Of a stretch of 64,000 nucleotides of DNA, positions 2,507-53,393 are shown piece by piece. The stretch is taken from contig CAYYEX010000001.1 in assembly GCA_964471165.1 (NCBI GenBank), positions 65,037-129,036 of the forward strand, in the 5' to 3' direction. This DNA is from an uncultured Candidatus Saccharibacteria bacterium (GTDB lineage Bacteria; Patescibacteriota; Minisyncoccia; Phycocordibacterales; UBA2100). A program made the translations under genes and the position numbers. The notes below the pieces were generated by a model. It was not told where the DNA came from. It worked only from the letters and a program-made list of their open reading frames with translations, and ran no database searches. Each line of letters starts with the position of its first letter. The stretch's first letter is position 1.

Positions 2507-3739
2507 ATGACTAAACCGATTCAGGCGACTGCCCCCTCTGGCAGCACGATTTCTGCAGCTACGAACTCGCCACTTCGTAAGACGGTGATTCTGCCTACCG
2601 GCAAAGAGGTACAGGCCTCAACCGGATGGGAGCCCTGGATGGATGAGGATGGTGCGACAGGATGGGTAGTCCCCGAAATCCTCGCACCTGACCCCGATCA
2701 GCCGCGAGACGAAATGAACGAGGCCGATCTCGAGGAATTGACCGAGAGTGTTCGTGTGGCTGGAGTGCGGCAAATTATCGACATCACGCCAGTCAAGCGT
2801 GCCCCGTGGATTAAAGTGCGCAAGGAGCATCGCAATCTGCCGCTTCTCATCGTTGCCGGACATCGACGACAGTTGGCTGCGCTCGGCGCCCCTATTGGTG
2901 CAGTGCGGATTATCATCCACATCTACGCTGATGCCGACGAACACGACGACGACCGCTCAATCTCCAACAAGCAGCGCGAGGGCGTTACCGAACTCGACGA
3001 AGGTCGGGAAATGGTCAAGCAGATTACGCGACGCAAGCTCAGCGTCGCCGAACTTGCAAGGCGGTGGGGCTACTCGCAACCCAAGGCACAGGCGCGAATC
3101 AATCTCACACAACTGGACCCCGCGATTTGGCCGCTCTTAAAGGCGGTAAGCGGCTCCCGCCGATCACTCGCACCAACAATTGGTGGACACCTTGGCGGTG
3201 TGAATACACCTACACTGGACGAGCTTGAGGAGCTGCGCAAACAGTTTACGAACGACGTTGCGTGGTCACGCTCCAAAGAATCCGAGAAGTCGATTGTCCC
3301 CGCAGCAGACGTGTCAGAAATTGACGACGAGGACCAGCTTCGGTTTCAGTGGCAACGGGTTATGCTCGCGGTCATTCGCCATCGCGGCATACCGTCGTCA
3401 AATGCGGTCAATCTCATCCTCACCCACAAGGCAACGATGAGCGCATCGCACAACGCCACTGGCCGTCCATCGGAGAAACATCAACCGAAGCGTCGCCTCG
3501 ATATTTTGGACAACACGCTCGAAGCGTTCTTGAAGTCCGAAGTGTGGGGATGGAACGGACCAGAATTCACGCGCATCTGTTCGAATTCCTCCCAGCAGGA
3601 TGTGCAGGCGTTTGTGGCGAAGCTCACGCAGGTGATTGCGCACGCCAAAGGCCTGGGTGACATTCTGGCTCGAATCAGCGCCACGAAGAAAGCCACCAGC
3701 CCCGAGGTCGCCGAACTGATGAAACGAAGGACTGGCTAA
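2507..3739 (+). CDS. ParB-like nuclease domain protein with internal HTH (410 aa); not the chromosomal parB
   Basis: Strong RBS GGAAAGGAGGG 8 nt upstream of the ATG. ParB/Srx-type N-terminal motif (LLIVAGHRRQLAALGA) and an HTH (KLSVAELARRWGYSQPKAQ). Lies in a GC-richer block. Hairpin terminator follows at 3779..3822. Confidence 0.7.
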   Translation: MTKPIQATAPSGSTISAATNSPLRKTVILPTGKEVQASTGWEPWMDEDGATGWVVPEILAPDPDQPRDEMNEADLEELTESVRVAGVRQIIDITPVKRAPWIKVRKEHRNLPLLIVAGHRRQLAALGAPIGAVRIIIHIYADADEHDDDRSISNKQREGVTELDEGREMVKQITRRKLSVAELARRWGYSQPKAQARINLTQLDPAIWPLLKAVSGSRRSLAPTIGGHLGGVNTPTLDELEELRKQFTNDVAWSRSKESEKSIVPAADVSEIDDEDQLRFQWQRVMLAVIRHRGIPSSNAVNLILTHKATMSASHNATGRPSEKHQPKRRLDILDNTLEAFLKSEVWGWNGPEFTRICSNSSQQDVQAFVAKLTQVIAHAKGLGDILARISATKKATSPEVAELMKRRTG

Positions 3740-4212: not shown

Positions 4213-4737
4213 CTACGAAAAACGGAGCGCTTCACCACTCAGAAGTTCAAAGCCGCGCATCATCGTAAGATACTCCGGGTCGTCGCCACTGTTGTGATTT
4301 GCGTACTCGCTGGTAACAATCTGCGCGCGTAGTTCTTTTACCTCGTCTTTCGAAAACCACCCGCATGTTGAGTGGTCCTCTGGGTGGATCATAACGTTCT
4401 CAATCGGGTCAGTGAATTGCGCAAAATATGTAACCTGTATCGAATGTGAGCCTTTTATGTGGTTCATGTAGGTGCACGTATAAAACGGGTCTCCCACGGC
4501 AACGCCCATACCAAGCTCCTCCTTAATCTCGCGCTTGAGCCCCAGCACGATATCTTCGCCAAAGTCGATATGCCCGCCCGGCAACTCGTACACGCCGGGG
4601 AGAAACTTTTTTGTGTCTGCACGCTTCGGGAGAAACACTTTGGTTACACCGTCGAACTTTGCGTGAATAAACGCACATGCGCTTATTACCTGCTGCCCAT
4701 GTGCTGGAACTTCACTGTCGTGCGAAATCTTGTTCAT
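4213..4737 (-). CDS. NUDIX hydrolase
   Basis: Nudix box [23 protein letters not shown] (GX5EX7REUXEEXGU). Confidence 0.8.
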
Positions 4738-8139: not shown

Positions 8140-9146
8140 AACATCTTTGCGATTTGGCGCGTGCGCTCCACGGTTTCTTTCGATGTTTGGCCATTCTCCT
8201 CCTCTCGAATGTATCGCGCCAAGCGTCGACCTACCTCTGCGTATGATTCCTGCATCACAACGTCTTCGTTGATGATGCCCGCCCTGAGTCGGTTTACGCC
8301 CATGCTGGTTGCTGAAGTAATCGTGCGCAGTAACGCGCCTTCTGCGGGAAATAGTTCTGACATTCTTCTCAGAATTTCGTAGTTTTCGATATCACGATTG
8401 TAGGAGACAGCACCACTTCCATGATTACTATCGTGCATTACGTGGTCAAAAAAGTCTGCAGAAGCCGCCATAAATGCCAGGTGGAGTGGATGGTGAATCG
8501 GGAGGTCAAACACGGGAAACGTTTCGAGTTTCAAATAAAATGGAATCGAACCTTTTTTCATTAGAAAATAAAGCTGGGACAGGCATACGTTGAACTTGCC
8601 ACTGCCTCCTCCAGGACTCAAGACGATTTGAATGGGCTTCACTGCATCAATAAACGAGTTTCTATCCAGATGATGAGCAATTTGAGTGGTGTTGGTATAG
8701 TCCTCTATCTCATAAAAGTAATGCACCTCGTTACCGCGAGCCTGAATGGTGCGGATAAAATTCTGAAGCCTTGTTTCGCTTTCCCAGCCCTGCAGCAGCC
8801 TCGTGAGCGCAACATGTTTTACTTTGAGGCCACGTTTTTCGAGCTCATTCAGTGAGCGCACAGTCTCGTCGTCGTATCGTGTTTTAAAATCACCACGTAT
8901 CCGTCCGCCAAGAATGTCCTTTGCAGATACACAAAAAATCGGCTCACTCTCGGGAAGCGAAAGGACAAGTTCGAGTTTCGCGTCCTCATGATACCCGGGC
9001 AGAACGCGAGCAGCGTGTCTGTCTTGTAGAATCTTCCCCCCAAACTCCACCACTAATGAATCCGTTTTACCCTCGACGGCAGCCCGAATGGCCGCTACTT
9101 GTGCCTCAATGTAGCGAGGTGTGTCGAACCCGATTCTATCGGTCAT
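8127..9146 (-). CDS. DUF1846 (UPF0371) family protein
   Basis: N-terminus ...LVVEFGGKILQDRHAARVLPGY resembles the conserved start of UPF0371/DUF1846 proteins. Shorter than typical members. Confidence 0.45.
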   Translation of the reverse strand: MTDRIGFDTPRYIEAQVAAIRAAVEGKTDSLVVEFGGKILQDRHAARVLPGYHEDAKLELVLSLPESEPIFCVSAKDILGGRIRGDFKTRYDDETVRSLNELEKRGLKVKHVALTRLLQGWESETRLQNFIRTIQARGNEVHYFYEIEDYTNTTQIAHHLDRNSFIDAVKPIQIVLSPGGGSGKFNVCLSQLYFLMKKGSIPFYLKLETFPVFDLPIHHPLHLAFMAASADFFDHVMHDSNHGSGAVSYNRDIENYEILRRMSELFPAEGALLRTITSATSMGVNRLRAGIINEDVVMQESYAEVGRRLARYIREEENGQTSKETVERTRQIAKMLWEN

Positions 9147-9202
9147 TGGGGAATCCTAGCACTGAGCACGTGGTTGGCGCCATTTTGTAGAGGTGTTTGA
9201 TG

Positions 9203-11089
9203 TTATCTGCAGATATTGATTTCTAAGTCGTCGTGGTAGTTCAGGCTCTGCAATTCAATCAAACGGGACAGTTTTTGGACCTCTACAGGATTTCCCATTT
9301 GCCACTTTTCAATTACAAGTATGTCCTCTCCTCCCTTTTCGATGCCAAGAATAACGGTTGAATGGATTTCTTGGAAAGATTCTCCGCGCCCGTTTGATAT
9401 AAGCAAAACACGCGACGCGGGCGCATTCGAAATACTTTCAATAATCTCTTTAACAATTCTGTTTGCGTGGTCTTTGGCCCCCTGCACACTCGCAAGTCCG
9501 CGAATCTCTGTGTGGGGAATCGCGATATGCTCGCCACTGTCATACATATCTTCTGTATATTCCTTCATGTCCTGCACAAATTCTTTCCCTTCGGCGCTCT
9601 CAAACATTTTGCTTACTTTTTCCTTGAATGCCTGTTCCCATTCATATTCCGACTCGAAATCCTCTAACTTTGGCTTCTCAACTGCCGGCGCAGTCGGTAC
9701 CGGCAAATCCAGGTCATCCCTGGCAATCGTGAGCATGAACGAATGGCAATCGTAGCTTTGCTCGTCATTCTTCGCATACCGAGCAGCAAGATGCTCGTTC
9801 AATGCGTTGAAATCTCTTGTCTCAAAACAATGTTCGGCTAATTTGTACGTTTCCTCAAGGCGCGGGGAAAGAGGCTCTAGGTATTCAACTTCGCCAGGAA
9901 TCGGTTCTGCTTCCGCGCGGCGAACACCCTCGCTGTCAAAGACATCGTCGTATGGCTGCCAACCGCGGTTACGCGTTTTCACAGACACGCCTGCACGTAC
10001 TTTAGTTCCACTATTGTCGTTCCAAAGTTTACTCAGATACTCCTGAGAATCCGGACGCAGGTCTTGAAAAAGCTTCCTGTTCGCCGCACCAATTGCGTTC
10101 TCACGCGAATTGTCTCCTGGCTTATTGTTGCTATTAACGAGCATTTGAGAGAGCTCGTGGTCGGAGGATTTGACAACACTTAATATTTTTTCCAAACCAG
10201 CATCTGTAAATGCATCCTTGATACTTTGGTCGAACAAATCACCGCCCCGGATATAGCCGCGCTTTATGCCCTCCCATATCTGTTCAACAGACGTTTCCGC
10301 AGCTTCTGCTAAATACTCCATAAAGATACGCACAAACCGCACTTCAGATTTGCGGTGAAATCCGTACTGAAAGAGCTCACTATTCGAACATGATATGTAC
10401 TTCTGCACATCATCCCGTGTTATCCCGAACCGGTCGGGACCGACTCTCCTCACGTATTCAACAAGCGTATCCTGCGTAATCATTTGGGTTATTCCCTCAT
10501 CGAGTATTTCCCCAAAAAACCGCCATGTTTCCAAAAGTAGGTTCTTTGTCTCTTCTTCATATACCCTATAGCCCGAAATTTCTCGCGTAGTGCTGTTTAT
10601 GAAGCTGGTGAGAAAGTGACCGATTTGCTCACGGCGCTGCAGTGCAATAGCGTGTGTCTCTTCGTGAATAACTATTTCCAACGCATTGATTCGCTTCAAT
10701 GCTTTAGTATCAATGCCAGGAACCGCAAAGTATCCTGTGCCCTTGAGTGGCTCTAAGTGCAGGGGCACACGCTCTAGCGCCAGGCCTTTCCCTTTACTAC
10801 GAGCGACTACAATTGTGTTGTCTTCCGGGTTGTAGTGCGCAGCGCCATACTCAATGTCTCCGACAAAAAAACGCTCTGCTCCAACAAAATTAATGTCTTT
10901 GGGATTCGCTCCACTCTTCTTATGCATTTCCTCAAAAATTTCACGAAGCGTTTTGAGGTCAACGGTTTCAAGAAAATTTGATACCCGCTCGTCTCTTTCG
11001 AGGCCGCGGCGTAATAGCTTTTCAACCGAAGGCGCCTTGCTATATCCGGTTCGCCCCGCTGGCCGTTCGTGTGATTGTGATTCTTTCAC
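9203..11089 (-). CDS. large acidic hypothetical protein with a single HExxH (HEETH) motif; possible zincin-like metallopeptidase domain
   Basis: 628-aa uninterrupted ORF. IVIHEETHAIAL contains HExxH. No other recognisable domain. Confidence 0.6.
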   Translation of the reverse strand: MKESQSHERPAGRTGYSKAPSVEKLLRRGLERDERVSNFLETVDLKTLREIFEEMHKKSGANPKDINFVGAERFFVGDIEYGAAHYNPEDNTIVVARSKGKGLALERVPLHLEPLKGTGYFAVPGIDTKALKRINALEIVIHEETHAIALQRREQIGHFLTSFINSTTREISGYRVYEEETKNLLLETWRFFGEILDEGITQMITQDTLVEYVRRVGPDRFGITRDDVQKYISCSNSELFQYGFHRKSEVRFVRIFMEYLAEAAETSVEQIWEGIKRGYIRGGDLFDQSIKDAFTDAGLEKILSVVKSSDHELSQMLVNSNNKPGDNSRENAIGAANRKLFQDLRPDSQEYLSKLWNDNSGTKVRAGVSVKTRNRGWQPYDDVFDSEGVRRAEAEPIPGEVEYLEPLSPRLEETYKLAEHCFETRDFNALNEHLAARYAKNDEQSYDCHSFMLTIARDDLDLPVPTAPAVEKPKLEDFESEYEWEQAFKEKVSKMFESAEGKEFVQDMKEYTEDMYDSGEHIAIPHTEIRGLASVQGAKDHANRIVKEIIESISNAPASRVLLISNGRGESFQEIHSTVILGIEKGGEDILVIEKWQMGNPVEVQKLSRLIELQSLNYHDDLEINICR

Positions 11090-16300: not shown

Positions 16301-16317
16301 CTGGGGGACTTGGAATC
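16301..16317 (-). repeat. 17-nt exact copy of tRNA-Gln 3' end (GATTCCAAGTCCCCCAG), 182 nt downstream of the tRNA
   Basis: ctgggggacttggaatc at 16301-16317 equals 16499-16515. A second degenerate copy ...cttgtcccccag lies at ~16330-16345. Confidence 0.85.
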
Positions 16318-16498
16318 CCCATCGACTCATAATATCAGCCGTCGCTTCTGGGGGACAAGGAGCGCTCGCATGAGCTCGCTTTTTGAGAACCCACGGTTCT
16401 CAACGTGTCTTCGCACTGCTCTCCTCCACGGGAAACTACCGTTTCCCGCCCCCTTCACTTCCAAGTCCCGCAGGACTCGTTCATTTCATTCTCTCGTG

Positions 16499-32398: not shown

Positions 32399-32404
32399 CA
32401 AAAA

Positions 32405-32440
32405 TACAAAAGACGGGACATTGTCCCGTCTTTTGTATTT
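32405..32440 (+). terminator. Rho-independent terminator after tRNA-Leu(CAA)
   Basis: AAAAGACGGGAC-attg-GTCCCGTCTTTTGTATTTT. Confidence 0.7.
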
Positions 32441-32573
32441 TGTAGAGCGGGGTGGAACGAGAAAGTGAGGACTGGGGCCCCGCGAGTACGCGGGGATGTC
32501 CGAGCAGGGCCGAGCGGAGAAAAGTTCTGACGAGAACTTTTCGAGCGCTTGGCCGAGTCCCTCCTCCGGCACA
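32441..32573 (+). repeat. ~130-nt tRNA-Leu-associated structured element ending in a 20-nt exact copy of the tRNA-Leu(CAA) 3' end
   Basis: Contains hairpins CCCCGCG-agta-CGCGGGG and GAAAAGTT-ctgacgag-AACTTTTC. Ends cgagtccctcctccggcaca, equal to the tRNA at 32381-32400. Homologous element at 53261..53393. Confidence 0.8.
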
Positions 32574-34660: not shown

Positions 34661-34774
34661 AAATAAATCCTAGCACGTTGCCGAGACTCTCTTCATAAAA
34701 AAAACAGAGGGCTTTTGCCATACTGCCCACGTGTCCGATTACTAGCAAAGACACCATTTATATACATCAGGCAT

Positions 34775-34960
34775 ATGAACATTCTCATCACGTGTCCCCA
34801 ATGCGGCTATGAGCACAAAACCACCTCTAATAGGGAGCTCATGAACAAAATTGTTATGTGGAACCACATGAAGCGGGCGCATCCTGGAACCGCAGAGAGC
34901 ATACTGCGCAGATTCAAGCGCGTCCCCCACGACCTCTATCACGTAAAGATTACGGCATAA
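34775..34960 (+). CDS. small zinc-ribbon-like protein (61 aa; CPQCG...H...H)
   Basis: Internal ATG of ORF 34715..34960. Basic, C2H2-like spacing. Weak RBS. Confidence 0.3.
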   Translation: MNILITCPQCGYEHKTTSNRELMNKIVMWNHMKRAHPGTAESILRRFKRVPHDLYHVKITA

Positions 34961-35000
34961 GAACAGTTGGCGGGCATGCAAGCGCCCGCCGAATCAGGAT

Positions 35001-35609
35001 ATGAGTATGCTGAATCTGAGAGTTGTTGTTGCGTGTATCGGTGCGGTTACCGCAGCTTTTTTAATCACTGCCGCAATGCACGCGTTGGCACTACGACTCC
35101 CGGACAGCGATACGGGAGCTATTGGTACTGCCTCCACCAGCAGCACTGGTGCAGGCCTGCCCACGCGACTCAAAATTCCCTCGCTCGACATCGATGCACG
35201 GGTACAGCAAGTGGGCATTAACAAAAAAGGAGAAATGGGAATACCCGATAACTTTCGTGATGTTGCATGGTACGCGTATGGTCCCGCACCTGGTGAAAAA
35301 GGGAGCGCCGTCATAGATGGCCACGTGGACAACGCACTTGCGCTCAGTGGCGTATTTAAGCGCCTGCACGAGGTTCGCGCGGGGGACGAGGTAATCGTCG
35401 TAACCGAGAGCGGTGCGCAATTGCGCTTTATAGTCGTAGACGTGCAAACGTATCCCTACGCGGACGTGCCGCTTGACTTGATTTTCACTCGAGCGGACGC
35501 AGCTCGCTTAAACCTTATTACCTGTGCAGGAACATGGGTATCAGGCCTGCGCACGTATGACAAACGTACCGTCGTGTACACAATATTTTCCAATGCTATC
35601 GGCCTGTAA
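35001..35609 (+). CDS. sortase family transpeptidase
   Basis: N-terminal TM, catalytic His (VIDGHVD), TLxTC motif (LNLITCAG), conserved Arg (LRTYDKRTVV). Confidence 0.75.
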   Translation: MSMLNLRVVVACIGAVTAAFLITAAMHALALRLPDSDTGAIGTASTSSTGAGLPTRLKIPSLDIDARVQQVGINKKGEMGIPDNFRDVAWYAYGPAPGEKGSAVIDGHVDNALALSGVFKRLHEVRAGDEVIVVTESGAQLRFIVVDVQTYPYADVPLDLIFTRADAARLNLITCAGTWVSGLRTYDKRTVVYTIFSNAIGL

Positions 35610-35628
35610 ACGTGGACTGAGACCGGTA

Positions 35629-36708
35629 TCACGAGGACACGGAGTAATCGATTTCTACCTCGCTTCCCTTGTCGCGAAAATGATTCTCGGAGAGCGTGCT
35701 GAGCGCCTTGGCGTGTCCCACAGGCAGCAGTACCGTAAAAACGGTGCCTCGTGGCACAGCGCTCTGGACCGCGATTTTCCCCTTGTGCTCCTTTACCAGC
35801 TCGGAAACTATCGTGAGGCCCAGGCCGGTTGTGCCAGAGACTCGTTTACGCGAACTATCACCGCGATAATAGGGCTCAAAAATACGTGACAAATGCTCGC
35901 GTGAAATACCAGTACCGGAATCGCGCACAGAGAGCTCCACATAGCCCGGATGCACGGGTACAACCTTGATGACAACGAGGCCGTCTTTTGGTGAGTGAGT
36001 CATCGCGTTCTTTACGATATTCATCACAATCTGTTCAAGTGCTCCCGAATTACCCCACACCAAGCTGTTCTTGGTGATATGCAAATCCACCTTGGTGGAG
36101 CGTTTTTCTTTGAGTGCTCGGAGTGTGCCGAGCGCTGCTCGAACCACATCGCCTAAATCGACGTTGCTAAACTTGGCTGCTTCTAAGCGAAATATCGATG
36201 AGAGCGAGAGGCGGTTATTTATGATGTCGGAAGTGCGTTCTAATTCGACGTCGATGCTTCGCATCATTGCAGCCTCAGCAGGAGATATATCCGAAGACAT
36301 GAGCGCTACTTCCATTGTGGTTTTAATGATTGAAAGCGGCGTACGCAGCTCATGCGCAAGATTAGATATGAACTCCTTTTGTGAACGGAGCGTTTGTTCT
36401 GCATGGCCAAGTGCGACACTCATAATCAAGTATCCAAAAATTGTGCTCACGAGGATTACCCCAACTGAAATCAAAAAAACGGTCTCATTACGCATGAGAA
36501 ATAAGAGCCCTGCGACCGTTGTAATGTAGCCGCCGAGTAAGAGCCCAATAGTGGATTCCACCCTAAAAAAGGGGTCGGAGCGGTATCTATGTGCGTAGGC
36601 GATAGCCCACACCACGAATCGTTTCCAGTATCCCCTCAGCGCCCGCGCCATCGAGTTTTCGTCGTAGATTTTTGACATGAACGTCGACGATATTACTGAA
36701 TCCAACAT
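35629..36708 (-). CDS. sensor histidine kinase (2 TM + HisKA + HATPase_c)
   Basis: H-box ISNLAHELRTPLS, N-box, G-boxes GTGLGLTIV. The ORF's 5' part overlaps the upstream response-regulator gene by up to 122 nt, so the start is uncertain (alternatives at 36678 or 36651). Confidence 0.8.
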   Translation of the reverse strand: MLDSVISSTFMSKIYDENSMARALRGYWKRFVVWAIAYAHRYRSDPFFRVESTIGLLLGGYITTVAGLLFLMRNETVFLISVGVILVSTIFGYLIMSVALGHAEQTLRSQKEFISNLAHELRTPLSIIKTTMEVALMSSDISPAEAAMMRSIDVELERTSDIINNRLSLSSIFRLEAAKFSNVDLGDVVRAALGTLRALKEKRSTKVDLHITKNSLVWGNSGALEQIVMNIVKNAMTHSPKDGLVVIKVVPVHPGYVELSVRDSGTGISREHLSRIFEPYYRGDSSRKRVSGTTGLGLTIVSELVKEHKGKIAVQSAVPRGTVFTVLLPVGHAKALSTLSENHFRDKGSEVEIDYSVSS

Positions 36709-37261
36709 AGTTGAAGTCCCATAAGTGACTGAGTAAGTCTTCTCTGTTAACGACTTTGTCCTGGTGTCGCATGAAATATTCCAGTAGTCCGAATTCTTTC
36801 AATGTAAGGAGAAGGTCACGTGTACCATACGCTACCTTGCGCGTGCCCGGGTCGAGACTCAACTTTCCCGCAGTAAGTACCTGTGGCAAAACCTCGTTTG
36901 GTCTGCGCATGAGTGCATGGATGCGCGCATTGAGCTCAGAGAACGCAAACGGCTTTACGAGGTAATCGTCTGCCCCGGAAGAAAGTAGTTGCACTTTGGT
37001 TTCTGTTTCTGAGCGTGCAGAAAGAATGAGTACTGGTACTCGTATTTCTTTTTCGCGCATTTGTTTGCAAACCTCAAGACCGTCCATGGTCGGCAACATG
37101 AGATCGAGCACAACCAAATCGTAATCGGTGCGATGCAGCGAAATTCGAGTGAGCCCCTTTGCCCCGTCATCTACAACATCGACCGTGTATCCTTGTAGCT
37201 CGAGGCCGCGTTTGATTACTTCGGAAAGTTTCTTTTCGTCTTCGATAAGGAGTATTTTCAT
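36587..37261 (-). CDS. OmpR-family response regulator (REC + winged helix)
   Basis: MKILLIEDE...DLVVLDLMLP...LILSA...DDYLVKPF receiver domain, C-terminal trans_reg_C (RLRT end). Confidence 0.85.
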   Translation of the reverse strand: MKILLIEDEKKLSEVIKRGLELQGYTVDVVDDGAKGLTRISLHRTDYDLVVLDLMLPTMDGLEVCKQMREKEIRVPVLILSARSETETKVQLLSSGADDYLVKPFAFSELNARIHALMRRPNEVLPQVLTAGKLSLDPGTRKVAYGTRDLLLTLKEFGLLEYFMRHQDKVVNREDLLSHLWDFNYVGFSNIVDVHVKNLRRKLDGAGAEGILETIRGVGYRLRT

Positions 37262-37467
37262 GCGTTTTTTGGGTTACGTTCAGTAATGTGGATGCACATT
37301 GGCGCCCTGCCCTCCCGGCGCCGACCCCAGCACTATATCGGAGAAAGGATGAAATGTTCATGAAGAAAGATGAAGGCGGGGTTTAAGCCCGGAAATGGGG
37401 CGGTTTGGGGTTATTTCGAGGAATCGAAATGTCACCGGCCCTCCGCTCGGTTTAAGGTACTATAAAA

Positions 37468-38013
37468 GTGATGCCTGCAGACGCACATAAACGAGAGGTG
37501 TCTGGCACCGAGGCCCGCGAAATGGTGCTTTCTGATATGCACCTTAAAAACCTTGTCATTCGGGGCTCTTTTGAAATGTCGGCTAGTCAAGCAGACAACT
37601 GGGAGTGGCAAAAAGAAATAGTGATTGAGAATTGTATTGTGGAGGACCTCCAGATCCCAATGTTCCATGCAGCAAAGCCCGTCGTTTTTTTGAATTCGGA
37701 TTTCAAAAAAATCGATTTGTATGCCCCGTATTTCTTATCTGGCCTACTCGTAAAGAACTGTCTTTTCGAGACTGTGGTCGATTTTCAAAGCGGTGGACAC
37801 AATAAGAATGGGACTGAATTTCGACTCGAGGGCAATGTGTTCAAAGAGTTCGTAAACTTCTTCGATGACTGGTTCGAGGGTCCAGTTGTAGTGAAGGACA
37901 ACAAATTTGAAAAAGGCACGAACTTGTTGAGCACAACACAAATGGTGACTTTCGATGTTGCTCCAGAAATCTCGGGTAATAGCGGAGAGATTAATATCGA
38001 GGGTGAAAACTGA
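37468..38013 (+). CDS. hypothetical protein (181 aa)
   Basis: ORF only. Acidic, repetitive N/F/E-rich segments. Confidence 0.4.
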   Translation: MMPADAHKREVSGTEAREMVLSDMHLKNLVIRGSFEMSASQADNWEWQKEIVIENCIVEDLQIPMFHAAKPVVFLNSDFKKIDLYAPYFLSGLLVKNCLFETVVDFQSGGHNKNGTEFRLEGNVFKEFVNFFDDWFEGPVVVKDNKFEKGTNLLSTTQMVTFDVAPEISGNSGEINIEGEN

Positions 38014-38057
38014 AAAACTCCCCGCATGGCGCATCTTTCATTAGGGTGCGGGCGATG

Positions 38058-38073
38058 TAGGAAACTCTCTAGC
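38058..38073 (-). repeat. 16-nt exact copy of tRNA-Trp 3' end (gcgggcgatgtaggaa), ~150 nt downstream of the tRNA
   Basis: Identical to 38221-38236. An inverted degenerate copy (tcgattcctaca...atcgccca) lies at 38153-38195. Confidence 0.8.
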
Positions 38074-38218
38074 CTCTCAGTTCGCCGTCGCTCACTTCGG
38101 GCTGGGCACCGCCTCGCACCCGCGCGTGCTCGCGCGGGACCCGCTCCGGCGCTCGATTCCTACACGCACAGCGCCCCACGCTATGCTATCGCCCACCGTT
38201 TTCACTATGTTCAAACTT

Positions 38219-38292
38219 TTGCGGGCGATGTAGGAATCGAACCTACACTAGCGGTTTTGGAGACCGCTGTTCTACCACTAAACTAATCGCCC
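38219..38292 (-). tRNA. tRNA-Trp (anticodon CCA), CCA encoded
   Basis: Reverse complement GGGCGATTAGTTTAGTGGTAGAACAGCGGTCTCCAAAACCGCTAGTGTAGGTTCGATTCCTACATCGCCCGCCA. Anticodon loop CTCCAAA. Confidence 0.85.
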
Positions 38293-38375
38293 TTTATTTA
38301 CTGCTGTCCGGCCAAGTATATGTGTCCGAGGCCAATTTAGAAAGAGCCCGGTTTCCCGGACTCTTTCGTTTTTTG

Positions 38376-38531
38376 TTATTTCTTAGCTTCCTTGAAAATC
38401 ACGTGCTTTCGGAGCTTTGCGCTGTATTTCTTCAGCTCGACTTTCCGGGTCACGAGCTTGCGGTTTTTGCGCGTCCAATACACCTCTCCGGTGGCTGCGT
38501 GCTTGAGCATTATGAGCTGGTCCTGTGACAT
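38376..38531 (-). CDS. rpmG: 50S ribosomal protein L33 (51 aa, non-zinc form)
   Basis: Not in the >=60-aa ORF track. Manual translation gives MSQDQLIMLKHAATGEVYWTRKNRKLVTRKVELKKYSAKLRKHVIFKEAKK, matching the L33 YxTxKNKRN...LELKKYxxxxRKHxxxKExK pattern. Sits upstream of tRNA-Trp, as in the conserved rpmG-trnW-secE-nusG locus. Confidence 0.7.
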   Translation of the reverse strand: MSQDQLIMLKHAATGEVYWTRKNRKLVTRKVELKKYSAKLRKHVIFKEAKK

Positions 38532-38635: not shown

Positions 38636-39142
38636 CTACCCCAAGGTAAACCAGAAATACAGCGTCAATTCACTGCTAAGAACAATGGTGGCGGCTTCGC
38701 CATCCTTAACCGGCCATGTCTGGCCGGTCTTGATTCGGTACTCCCAGACGCCCGCTTTTCGCAAACTGCCCAACGGAGCAATGTAGTGCGGGTCGCCAAG
38801 AGCTTGGAAAGTCGGGTCCCCGTGGGTCAGGATGTCGACCACGATGTGCCCCACCCAGCCCACGCCAAAAGCCGTAATGAGCGGCTGGTGAAGCCACAGG
38901 CCCAAGGCCACGCTCGCAATCGCAAGGATGAGTGAATGACTCATTTCCTTAATCGCGAGCAGGAACGGGCCCTGCTCGAGGAGCGGCTGTTTGCCCCTCA
39001 TTTTGTCGAGAAAAAACTGCGGGGCCATCACCACATCGGGCCCCACCGAGGAAACCAGACACGCGAGCTGCGCGAGCGGCTGCCCCGGAAACATGATTGC
39101 GCCGAGTAGTGCGCCGATTGGAGCGTGTGTGACTGTCTGCAC
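38636..39142 (-). CDS. membrane-bound metal-dependent hydrolase-like protein (DUF457/YdjM-like)
   Basis: His-rich TM protein (HAPIGALLG..., GWVGHIVVDILTHGD) resembling LexA-regulated inner-membrane hydrolase-like family. Confidence 0.45.
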   Translation of the reverse strand: MQTVTHAPIGALLGAIMFPGQPLAQLACLVSSVGPDVVMAPQFFLDKMRGKQPLLEQGPFLLAIKEMSHSLILAIASVALGLWLHQPLITAFGVGWVGHIVVDILTHGDPTFQALGDPHYIAPLGSLRKAGVWEYRIKTGQTWPVKDGEAATIVLSSELTLYFWFTLG

Positions 39143-39722: not shown

Positions 39723-39729
39723 TTGCTTG

Positions 39730-39812
39730 TGCGTCGAGCAGGATTCGAACCTGCGCAGACCGAAGTCGCTTGGTTTACAGCCAAGTGCGATTGACCGCTC
39801 CGCCATCGACGC
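39730..39812 (-). tRNA. tRNA-Tyr (anticodon GUA), type II
   Basis: Reverse complement GCGTCGATGGCGGAGCGGTCAATCGCACTTGGCTGTAAACCAAGCGACTTCGGTCTGCGCAGGTTCGAATCCTGCTCGACGCA. Anticodon loop CTGTAAA, long variable arm. Confidence 0.85.
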
Positions 39813-46751: not shown

Positions 46752-46814
46752 TTGAGGCCACAGCGGGAGTTGCACCCGCCCATAGCGCAATTCTACAAAC
46801 AGAGCAGACCGCCG
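46752..46814 (-). repeat. partial copy of the tRNA-Cys 3' half (36 nt identical plus cagaccgccg), ~95 nt downstream of the tRNA
   Basis: ttgaggccacagcgggagttgcacccgcccatagcg repeated at 46752-46787 and 46851-46886; cagaccgccg at 46805 and 46893. Confidence 0.85.
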
Positions 46815-46853
46815 TGCGGAATGGGATTGAGTTGAAGAATCTATATTTTTTTG

Positions 46854-46978: not shown

Positions 46979-47063
46979 GCCGGGGTGATGGAATGGTAGA
47001 CATAGGGGACTTAAAATCCCCAGGCCGTAAAAGGCCGTGTGGGTTCGAGTCCCACTCCCGGCA
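46979..47063 (+). tRNA. tRNA-Leu (anticodon UAA), type II
   Basis: GCCGGGG.../...TCCCGGC acceptor, anticodon loop CTTAAAA, variable arm GGCCGTAAAAGGCCGT, T-arm GTGGGTTCGAGTCCCAC. Confidence 0.85.
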
Positions 47064-47072
47064 CAAAAAAGA

Positions 47073-49176: not shown

Positions 49177-49190
49177 CAAAGACGAAACAA

Positions 49191-49214
49191 ACCTGGCCTG
49201 CGCCAGGTTTTTTC
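49191..49214 (+). terminator. Rho-independent terminator after tRNA-Lys
   Basis: AACCTGGC-ctgc-GCCAGGTTTTTT. Confidence 0.7.
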
Positions 49215-49343
49215 GCTTTGTGCGGGCCGGAGCCATGTCGCAAAAGCTTTTGCGACGGGCGAGGCAGGGTCGTGGAATTTTCCGAGCGGCGGCGAGGAAA
49301 ATATCCCTGACCACATGTGGCCCTACACCGGCGAGACGAGGGA

Positions 49344-53216: not shown

Positions 53217-53260
53217 CAAAAATCATTAGAGCCAGGGCATGACCTGGCTCTAATGATTTT
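53217..53260 (+). terminator. long hairpin terminator after tRNA-Leu(UAG)
   Basis: AAAAATCATTAGAGCCAGG-gcatga-CCTGGCTCTAATGATTTT. Confidence 0.75.
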
Positions 53261-53393
53261 CGGGAGGTGGATGAGACGAGAAGGCGAAGGCTGGGGACCC
53301 CGCGAGCACGCGGGGATGCCTGAGCGTAGTCAGGCGGAGAAAAGTTTTGACGAAAACTTTTCGAGCGCTTGACCGAGTCTCCCTCCGCCCACA
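53261..53393 (+). repeat. ~130-nt tRNA-Leu-associated structured element (homolog of 32441..32573) ending in an 18/21 copy of the tRNA-Leu(UAG) 3' end
   Basis: CCCCGCG-agca-CGCGGGG and GAAAAGTTTT-gacg-AAAACTTTTC hairpins. Ends cgagtctccctccgcccaca. Closing stem GGCGGAG...CTCCGCC possible. Confidence 0.8.

Follow-up and report, generated by a model that had tools for sequence, protein, structure and literature searches.

The locus considered here raises the question of what lies behind a tRNA gene that appears to have lost its usual neighbors. In a stretch of 64,000 nt (hereafter the window) from contig CAYYEX010000001.1 of an uncultured Candidatus Saccharibacteria bacterium, the gene for ribosomal protein L33 (rpmG) precedes tRNA-Trp, as in the order rpmG-trnW-secE-nusG, and tRNA-Trp is followed by a short GC-rich interval that carries copies of its own 3' end. 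A first-pass annotation had placed a 51-aa L33 gene directly upstream of tRNA-Trp, which is borne out by the open reading frame (ORF) and its Pfam match (Table 1). It had further proposed that secE-nusG was replaced by the repeat-bearing element, and had taken the coincidence of element and synteny break as support for the view that such tRNA-flanking elements are insertion or recombination sites. We find that the element represents a widespread, apparently undescribed folded family of Parcubacteria (Paceibacterota, candidate phyla radiation), and that the synteny break has a separate and older history.

The 173 nt after tRNA-Trp end in an exact copy of the last 16-17 nt of the tRNA. The direct repeat, TGCGGGCGATGTAGGAA on the plus strand, is exact over 17 nt (38047-38063 and 38220-38236) with a spacing of 173 nt; the copy had been recognized in the first-pass annotation at 38058-38073, about 10 nt from its actual position. 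Allowing up to three mismatches, the tRNA-tail 18-mer occurred at only two sites in the 64 kb, compared to an expectation of 0.08, and none of 100 shuffled sequences reached two. The interval after tRNA-Trp has a G+C content of 71-74%, relative to a window-wide reference of 51%. An inverted copy of the tRNA end, also noted earlier, resolves into two parts separated by a 23-nt hairpin (hp0): a 12-nt anti-T segment that is 100% complementary to 38229-38240 within the tRNA, and an anti-acceptor segment that complements ATCGCCC. The GC hairpin CCCGCGCG-tgct-CGCGCGGG lies where it had been described. No credible ORF was found within the 173 bp, no terminator-like site was called in the interval between tRNA-Trp and its element, and a search of 38000-38300 with the Rfam 15 covariance models at E-values up to 10 returned the tRNA as its sole match. 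The Leu-CAA element described below likewise matched no Rfam family besides tRNA.

Table 1. Coordinates of the tRNA-Trp element, of its neighbors and of related elements in the window.
Feature	Position	Strand	Description
Direct copy of tRNA-Trp 3' end	38047-38063	-	T-loop nt ~58 through discriminator plus one base; 3' strand of closing stem
Type-B core	38064-38152	-	GCGCCGGAGC, hairpin 1, GCGAGGCGGTGCCCAG, hairpin 2 (~38078-38098, apex GAGCGACGGCGA), GGCTAGAGAG
GC hairpin (hairpin 1 of the core)	38119-38138		CCCGCGCG-tgct-CGCGCGGG
Anti-T segment	38153-38164	-	TGTAGGAATCGA; exact reverse complement of T loop and T-stem 3' strand
Extra hairpin hp0, 23 nt	38165-38187	-	Predicted fold; splits closing stem; at place of tRNA D and anticodon arms
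Anti-acceptor segment	38188-38194	-	GGGCGAT; complements acceptor 3' strand ATCGCCC of tRNA and of downstream copy
Leader mini-hairpin	38198-38216	-	GTTT-GA-AC-ATA-GT-GA-AAAC, tandem G-A; predicted fold; between tRNA-Trp and element
tRNA-Trp, anticodon CCA	38221-38292	-	ARAGORN; Rfam tRNA 72.8 bits; 3' CCA not encoded
Hairpin 3' of rpmG	38340-38367	-	Inverted repeat, 12-nt arms, 92% complementary, 4-nt loop
rpmG (ribosomal protein L33, 51 aa)	38376-38531	-	Pfam PF00471 Ribosomal_L33, E 9.3e-12; conserved upstream neighbor of tRNA-Trp
181-aa ORF	37468-38013	+	No Pfam or PHROG match
Response regulator	36587-37261		After 181-aa ORF
Histidine kinase	35629-36708		After 181-aa ORF and response regulator
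Tail-copy element behind another tRNA	16301-16497	-
Tail-copy element behind another tRNA	32400-32572	+
Tail-copy element behind another tRNA	46754-46852	-
Tail-copy element behind another tRNA	49178-49318	+
Tail-copy element behind another tRNA	53218-53393	+

When the Trp element is folded alone, GGGCGAT pairs with the ATCGCCC of the tail copy and is followed by a free G, giving an acceptor mimic with an unpaired discriminator. In this predicted fold the long form seen behind tRNA-Trp resembles a tRNA skeleton, with a 7-bp acceptor-like stem, a free discriminator, a stand-in arm, and a T stem in which the core takes the place of the T loop. The stand-in hairpin hp0 is present in many long-form elements and has a homolog, with a T-G to G-C change, behind the tRNA-Trp of a related contig (L005; contigs and loci other than the window are denoted by L numbers). 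The leader mini-hairpin motif recurs in L005, L243, L299 and other long-form elements, where AC/GT is exchanged in a compensatory manner for GC/GC.

The Trp element is one of many. Six of the eight tRNA genes of the window are followed by a copy of their own 3' end 66-181 nt downstream: Gln, Leu-CAA, Trp, Cys, Lys (degenerate) and Leu-UAG (two mismatches). The inserts behind Leu-CAA and Leu-UAG are homologous to each other, with cores of a second kind (type A) that are about 85% alike and differ in hairpin 2 by a compensatory C-G to T-A change, and they have a hairpin motif in common with the Trp insert. The tRNA-Lys element is a degenerate type B that scores 31 bits with the covariance model introduced below, and the tRNA-Gln element has a core type of its own and two tail copies. 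The flank of tRNA-Cys carries a 34-nt exact partial duplicate that includes remnants of the anticodon stem. None of the eight genes encodes CCA, each being followed by C and an A-rich run; several metagenome relatives do encode the tRNA CCA, and their tail copy takes it in.

Screening of metagenomes with two invariant type-B motifs yielded at least 120 loci, about 30 of which were chance matches in GC-rich coding DNA and the rest true copies. A covariance model (R1) built from 30 sequences matched the window at 38054-38166 on the minus strand with 96.2 bits (E 3.9e-21) and, among the loci listed, identified at least 108 sites on 97 Parcubacteria-like sources. R1 had no match in 1.4 Mb from 80 mostly non-Patescibacteria genomes; these genomes were the yield of a ClpB search that returned distant genomes only (best 63% identity, to a Paceibacterota metagenome-assembled genome), and were used purely as a negative control. 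A same-strand tRNA lies at most 160 nt upstream of 69 of the 94 tabulated R1 matches, while three matches follow another element in tandem, four are at a contig end and 18 are apparently orphan. The tRNAs concerned span about 30 anticodons. Irrespective of core type, a tail copy of at least 12 nt was detected downstream of 64 of the 154 tRNAs in these contigs as opposed to 0 of 26 in control loci, and 20 of those 64 tRNAs lacked the type-B motif. Full-text searching of the literature found no description of the element.

These data bear directly on two simple explanations. Integration at tRNA genes classically leaves a direct repeat of the tRNA 3' end that begins in the T loop, and the interval could be read as the attL/attR-type scar of an integrase-borne island or prophage at the 3' end of tRNA-Trp, later deleted to 173 bp. 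The exact 17-nt repeat that bounds the insert is as this explanation would have it, as is the presence of lineage-specific genes in the flank beyond. The supposed remnant, however, is a conserved and covarying structure that recurs in at least 108 copies behind tRNAs of many specificities; the sequence between the repeats and the scanned window ORFs revealed no integrase or integrase remnant, and no T-stem-like core site lies directly upstream of the copy. Moreover, the lineage-specific genes are outside the repeats, and a pattern search of the 64-kb window found no further tRNA-Trp tail copy that would bound them. Compared with att repeats of the T-loop class at tRNA and transfer-messenger RNA (tmRNA) genes, the element has in common a direct repeat from T loop to gene end, an intact tRNA, tandem copies and variable adjacent genes. 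It departs from them in its length of about 115-170 nt without an integrase, in the recurrence of one folded core at about 30 anticodons, in its internal inverted tail copy, and in the absence of a core-type site at the distal repeat. An att scar is thus largely refuted, with the same core behind many tRNAs, no recombinase and no core-type site by the distal repeat, and we regard it as very improbable. Two scans of viral contigs with the core motifs returned chance matches in coding DNA only and no true copies, and a viral origin of the element was rejected.

The second explanation, that the downstream copy is what is left of a decayed tandem duplicate of tRNA-Trp, is less probable still, and we give it almost no credence. 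The copy is indeed tRNA sequence, and the flank of tRNA-Cys in the window does look like a partial duplicate of this kind. However, the interior of the Trp element has no similarity to tRNA, Rfam identifies the real tRNA only, and the same core is found behind unrelated tRNAs. The 5' arm is, in addition, the reverse complement of the 3' strand and not the 5' half of a tRNA: in L001, one position of the arm is complementary to the 3' strand although the corresponding pair in the tRNA is G-U. The family evidence therefore refutes a pseudogene origin for the Trp element.

Across the family, elements of about 115-170 nt lie on the tRNA strand immediately 3' of the tRNA gene and follow a fixed order: tRNA, spacer, an optional anti-acceptor segment with extra hairpin, anti-T segment, core, and direct tail copy. 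On its 5' side the closing stem consists of the reverse complement of tRNA nt ~53-68 (T loop, T-stem 3' strand and acceptor 3' strand), and on its 3' side of a direct copy of the tRNA from nt ~56/57 to the end, CCA included where this is gene-encoded. Tail copies measure 15-21 nt and inverted copies 8-22 nt, both at fixed positions; the anti segment starts at tRNA nt 53/54 and extends into the T loop by 4 nt more than the copy. The spacer may be of zero length, as in L272, L276 and L349, where the anti-acceptor begins directly after the encoded CCA, or may be a small G-A-containing hairpin, as behind tRNA-Trp, or a terminator-like hairpin. Hairpins of the latter sort were found in the spacer of 18 of 39 elements and after the copy in 11 of 39, with no rule of placement.

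The consensus fold is a Y-shaped three-way junction with two hairpin arms, closed by the stem of anti segment and copy. In 105 distinct sequences, 92.6% of the cells are paired, compared to 69.7% in shuffled alignments, both sides have changed in 33 of 34 pairs, and the covariation score reaches 0.52, whereas shuffles give 0.145 and slid partners no more than 0.09. Fitting the alignment to the model works in favor of structure, but the margins are large. Several tandem G-A motifs and the junction nucleotides are conserved, though they lie outside the search pattern. Type A elements form the same kind of junction, with compensatory changes at 27 of 42 pairs in eight sequences. On the tRNA-sense strand, G-U pairs outnumber A-C pairs by 102 to 49 overall and by 56 to 19 in the core helices, and the folding strand is therefore the tRNA-sense strand.

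Several observations touch on the variety within the family. Contigs L363 and L364 carry a further type-B variant behind tRNA-Trp. A third core type with the same arm architecture, ...TCGAAGCCCNATTGAGCCGA...GAGCCAATGGRGGTACTGAC...GTAGRGGTCGA, occurs in L335, as a second element after a type-B copy, and in L256 (~2600-2750). In L274, L288, L302, L314 and L358, the T-loop part of the tail copy is interrupted between GAT and TCC by a ~14-nt hairpin (AAGCGTACTCGCGG or a variant), which suggests a nested insertion of a smaller palindromic unit. With regard to the orphans, a tRNA-like gene at L280:52-164 that had been overlooked by tRNA finders contains a match to Rfam Intron_gpI (44 bits, just under threshold), ends in GGGGGTTCGAATCCCCCTCCCGCA and is followed by a type-B element. 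A common unannotated region precedes the orphan elements at L244:~9030-9388, L253:~3050-3412, L332:~210-568 and upstream of 5531 in L281. It is made up of AT-rich helices with GC clamps (e.g., ...CCGAAA..CTTTCTTCTTCC..GGCGCGCGCAAAAT..AAAAAATGTAGA.GAAAATTTT...), has no Rfam match, and may be another non-coding RNA gene.

Comparison with relatives shows how the elements behave over time. The exact L33 protein of the window is encoded on 13 public contigs, in which identity to the window is 72-77% for miaA and about 91% for ParB (one contig, L007, being from the same organism); L33 homologs are labeled Parcubacteria, Paceibacterota or Taylorbacteria. Behind the tRNA-Trp of L005 there is a homologous element that is 86% identical, with compensatory changes in two hairpins. 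Both its tail copy and its inverted segment match the different T stem of that genome, such that copy and anti segments track the change of the tRNA T stem from CCTAC to CCCTC. The Trp element is also present in L363 and L364, while in L365 and L366 the tRNA and element are inverted together; tRNA-Trp with its element thus persists across genomes in which L33 is 84-86% identical. In two public assemblies of a close relative, exactly 100 N start 5 nt after tRNA-Trp, at the place where the element is expected (L001:3724-3823 and L002:3721-3820), and the GC-rich, repeated hairpin element probably breaks short-read assembly. No element follows tRNA-Tyr in the window, L003 or L004, whereas its site is filled by a type A core in L001 and L008 and by a type B core (the Trp type) in L006, in each case with arms derived from the tail of tRNA-Tyr. 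Tandem units bounded by tail repeats also exist. Presence or absence at the same tRNA in close relatives, together with tandem copies, demonstrates that the elements are dynamic.

Small modules consisting of promoter and tRNA, in some cases with terminator and element, have been inverted in place between syntenic relatives. This was observed for tRNA-Trp, tRNA-Tyr and tRNA-Leu-CAA (L003:6198-6269, L004:1103-1176 and 316-399, L008:528-611, L005:3496-3578, and L365:7392-7463, 4543-4626 and 10218-10299). Within inverted modules, the element is always 3' of its tRNA.

The same comparisons answer the question of secE and nusG. Relatives with and without the element alike lack secE-nusG after rpmG-trnW: neither gene lies directly downstream in the window or in any of the 14 related loci examined. 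Queries for NusG, L11, L1 and SecE (E. coli and B. subtilis sequences) gave no tblastn match below E 0.7 in the window. In close relatives with identical L33, the order is ClpB, tRNA-Tyr, a pilin-like gene, L33, tRNA-Trp, one or more variable genes, in some cases DAGK, then NUDIX, miaA, DCC1 and tRNA-Leu. More distant Parcubacteria (L33 84-86% identical) have ClpB, L33, tRNA-Trp, NUDIX/miaA, ParB, RelA/SpoT and TopA, and in the most distant (78%) L33 is followed by murA and mreB. A relative with an element-free tRNA-Trp, L004, still runs into a hypothetical gene, DAGK, NUDIX and miaA, so that the same order exists without the element. Because L004 keeps this gene order, an arrangement that the first-pass annotation had itself named as one that would refute its proposal, the loss of the rpmG-trnW-secE-nusG adjacency goes back to an ancestor of the lineage and has nothing to do with the element. 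The proposal that the element replaced secE-nusG, and with it the tie between element and synteny break, is accordingly not supported: the absence of the two genes is an old lineage trait and not the outcome of an event at the element, which removes a false lead.

The remainder of the earlier description of this flank holds. Beyond the element lies an unrelated hypothetical gene on the opposite strand, followed by a two-component system (Table 1), and relatives have another single gene between tRNA-Trp and DAGK/NUDIX, encoding 185 aa, 244 aa or a SIMPL protein. The flank of tRNA-Trp is a variable spot, since the lineage-specific genes beyond the element have no counterpart in relatives. The idea that tRNA-flanking elements mark sites of insertion or recombination consequently survives in part, in that the elements are a recurrent and dynamic class (six of eight window tRNAs) next to a variable flank, and loses the support it had drawn from the synteny break. 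The block that is specific to the window lineage extends over 34715-38013 and comprises a zinc-ribbon ORF, a sortase, the histidine kinase, the response regulator and the 181-aa ORF; on the other side, a gene for a YdjM-like membrane protein (38636-39142) likewise has no equivalent here among the relatives. Each of two type IV secretion pilin-like genes (PF18895; 39225-39668 and 53775-54281, both minus strand) adjoins a tRNA gene, and L365 has an enlarged pilin region, with two genes of about 550 aa between ClpB and L33. The L33 gene is preceded by a promoter-like site on the minus strand, and the hairpin at its 3' side, kept in L001 and L005, is probably the rpmG terminator. Upstream of tRNA-Trp, the hexamers TTGGCC and TATACT are no more than 9 nt apart, and a -10-like box is all that can be claimed of a sigma-70 promoter.

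We tentatively favor, at a little less than an even chance, the reading that the element is a tRNA-linked structured RNA, co-transcribed with its tRNA and gained or lost by recombination between tail repeats. Under this reading, the element would be transcribed as the 3' trailer of the tRNA and would fold as RNA on the tRNA-sense strand. Its acceptor-like end, as predicted from the fold, could then let tRNA-processing enzymes release and trim it. Recombination between the two identical tRNA-tail repeats would account for the gain, amplification and loss of copies, with which the tandem arrays and empty sites are consistent. Co-transcription of the Trp element is suggested by the lack of a terminator between tRNA and element, and by the zero-length spacer of some other copies. 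Since the long forms look like a tRNA skeleton, tRNA-processing enzymes could define the ends of the element. In this respect it is comparable to tRNA-like structures such as the tmRNA domain, the viral 3' tRNA-like structure and RNAs of the mascRNA type, with which it has in common an acceptor mimic, a free discriminator, a large domain in a tRNA frame, and a position that would allow those enzymes to set its ends. It differs from them in that a core of about 90 nt replaces the T loop, that there is no analog of the anticodon arm beyond a short hairpin, and that the mimic reproduces the 3' strand of whichever tRNA lies next to it.

A number of observations weigh against a tRNA-linked RNA. We infer transcription, processing and any RNA role from DNA sequence, and processing mimicry by itself would need no identity between the arms and the adjacent tRNA. 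The element is dispensable: tRNA-Tyr (39729-39812) and tRNA-Leu-UAA (46979-47064) of the window have none, the inverted tRNA-Trp of L004 is without it, and that of L003, also inverted relative to L33, is element-free over the approximately 80 nt by which its contig extends past the tRNA. Of the 94 tabulated matches, 18 look orphaned, although one of them follows a group I intron-bearing tRNA missed by ARAGORN. About half of the elements examined for terminators (18 of 39) lie behind a terminator-like hairpin, which could end transcription before them and weakens a universal model of co-transcription. The Trp copy of the window has CTAGAG in place of the consensus CGAGGG and one broken core pair, and may be decaying. 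Lastly, the strand bias in wobble pairs is no proof of RNA, since G-T wobble is tolerated in folded single-stranded DNA (ssDNA) and an alignment fitted to a model leans to G-U.

A serious, if rather unlikely, rival is a selfish non-autonomous DNA element whose fold is recognized as ssDNA (compare attC sites and the ends of IS200/IS605) or which spreads by target-primed copying. Such an element would insert at the T loop of a tRNA, duplicate the tail, be moved in trans by an enzyme encoded elsewhere, and have no function as RNA. Much of what is described above is as expected of it: close relatives differ in whether a given tRNA carries a copy, one site holds either of two core types, and there are tandem arrays, nested small hairpin inserts, and several core families with one common architecture. 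The direct repeat from a fixed T-loop point to the end of the tRNA is like a long target duplication, the offset of about 4 nt between inverted and direct copy could reflect a staggered cut, and structure is kept while stem sequences vary, as in attC sites. However, a Pfam scan of 34 window ORFs turned up neither a transposase nor an integrase or reverse transcriptase, and an autonomous version was not encountered. When the ORFs of 88 element-bearing contigs were clustered, they revealed no recurrent neighbor that could serve as a partner gene, the recurrent families all being housekeeping (TypA, HU, ClpB, CCA-adding enzyme, ABC-F and RarA). Target duplication also leaves the internal inverted copy, which is matched to the tRNA as well, unaccounted for. 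The element stays 3' of its tRNA and on the same strand through inversions and deep divergence, and its conserved junction nucleotides and G-A motifs are as expected of an RNA with tertiary structure.

Known classes of small mobile DNA provide a partial match at best. Miniature inverted-repeat transposable elements (MITEs), repetitive extragenic palindromes (REPs) and bacterial interspersed mosaic elements (BIMEs) are likewise short, non-coding sequences in many copies that form hairpins, vary in presence and carry no gene themselves. In contrast to these, the inverted arms of the element are copied from the adjacent tRNA and are not constant, its place and orientation are fixed, its interior folds into a covarying three-way junction in which the junction nucleotides are conserved, and no matching autonomous transposon or REP-associated tyrosine transposase was found. 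An ordinary MITE was rejected on the grounds that the arms change with the tRNA and that there is no linked transposase. Integron attC sites are similar in length (~60-140 nt), in keeping structure while stem sequence varies, and in that one strand seems to fold. Unlike attC, the element has outer ends of tRNA acceptor sequence, no RYYYAAC/GTTRRRY boxes and conserved core motifs, and it neighbors housekeeping genes, being neither behind cassette ORFs nor near intI. With both the defining boxes and the cassette context absent, an attC site was rejected as well.

A further RNA-based possibility, which we consider more doubtful than a selfish DNA element, is that each element acts on the tRNA that it follows. 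Its anti segment would be paired to the 3' half of the tRNA or else to the tail copy, and a junction switch governed by a ligand or protein would control folding and maturation of the tRNA; alternatively, the element would be a guide-core-donor unit that equips a tRNA severed in its T loop with a fresh 3' segment. Stated generally, and at a similarly low probability, this would be a per-tRNA, cis-encoded module for control or repair behind many Parcubacteria tRNA genes, with the 5' arm as guide, the junction as sensor or catalytic core and the 3' arm as spare tail. Such a module might, depending on a signal, hold the nascent 3' half of the tRNA in a duplex or release it, and in a stronger version hand over the spare tail when the T loop or acceptor end of the tRNA is damaged.

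Several features argue for action on the tRNA. The anti segment complements the tRNA from nt 53, 4 nt beyond its match to the copy, and in 37 of 40 modeled transcripts of tRNA plus element the anti segment is paired, in the predicted structure of lowest energy, to the tail of the tRNA proper, at a median gain of 9.6 kcal/mol over independent folding (40 transcripts, nearest-neighbor prediction). The copy stays identical to the tRNA while the tRNA changes, which selection for both pairings would explain, and the layout of guide, core and 3' segment resembles that of engineered trans-splicing ribozymes. The pairing advantage, however, is a thermodynamic prediction from nearest-neighbor models that undervalue the tertiary folding of tRNA, and gene conversion between repeats 170 bp apart could equally maintain identity. 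The additional 4 nt (GAAC) cannot be shown to track the tRNA because the complementary GUUC is almost invariant in tRNAs; one informative case agrees with tracking and two disagree. Where copy and tRNA differ, most of the differences relevant to which of them the anti segment matches fall at the edge of the copy. The element matches no ribozyme or riboswitch family in Rfam. The nucleotide before the copy is C or A and not the terminal G of group I introns, and, with no Intron_gpI match to the element, a group I intron or trans-splicing ribozyme was rejected. Three-way-junction aptamers of riboswitches have in common with the element a Y-shaped junction with conserved nucleotides, closed by a P1 stem, for one strand of which a strong alternative partner is predicted in the case of the element. 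Unlike them, the element lies 3' of a tRNA and not in a 5' untranslated region, its downstream genes are unrelated to one another, its alternative partner is the tRNA itself, and it has no Rfam match.

The family has practical consequences. It confounds assembly, as evidenced by the 100-N gaps in two public assemblies, it mimics integration scars in island-finding tools, and it provides a covariance model that can be used for annotation. With regard to biology, Parcubacteria genomes are tiny, yet about four in ten tRNA genes in these contigs carry a folded element of ~115-170 nt. If the element is DNA of a selfish kind, it would be an unusual mobile element with target-templated arms, which implies an unknown mechanism of insertion or copying aimed at the most conserved loop in biology. 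If it is RNA, it would constitute a new and abundant class of tRNA-linked structured RNA with a built-in tie to the folding, processing or quality control of tRNA.

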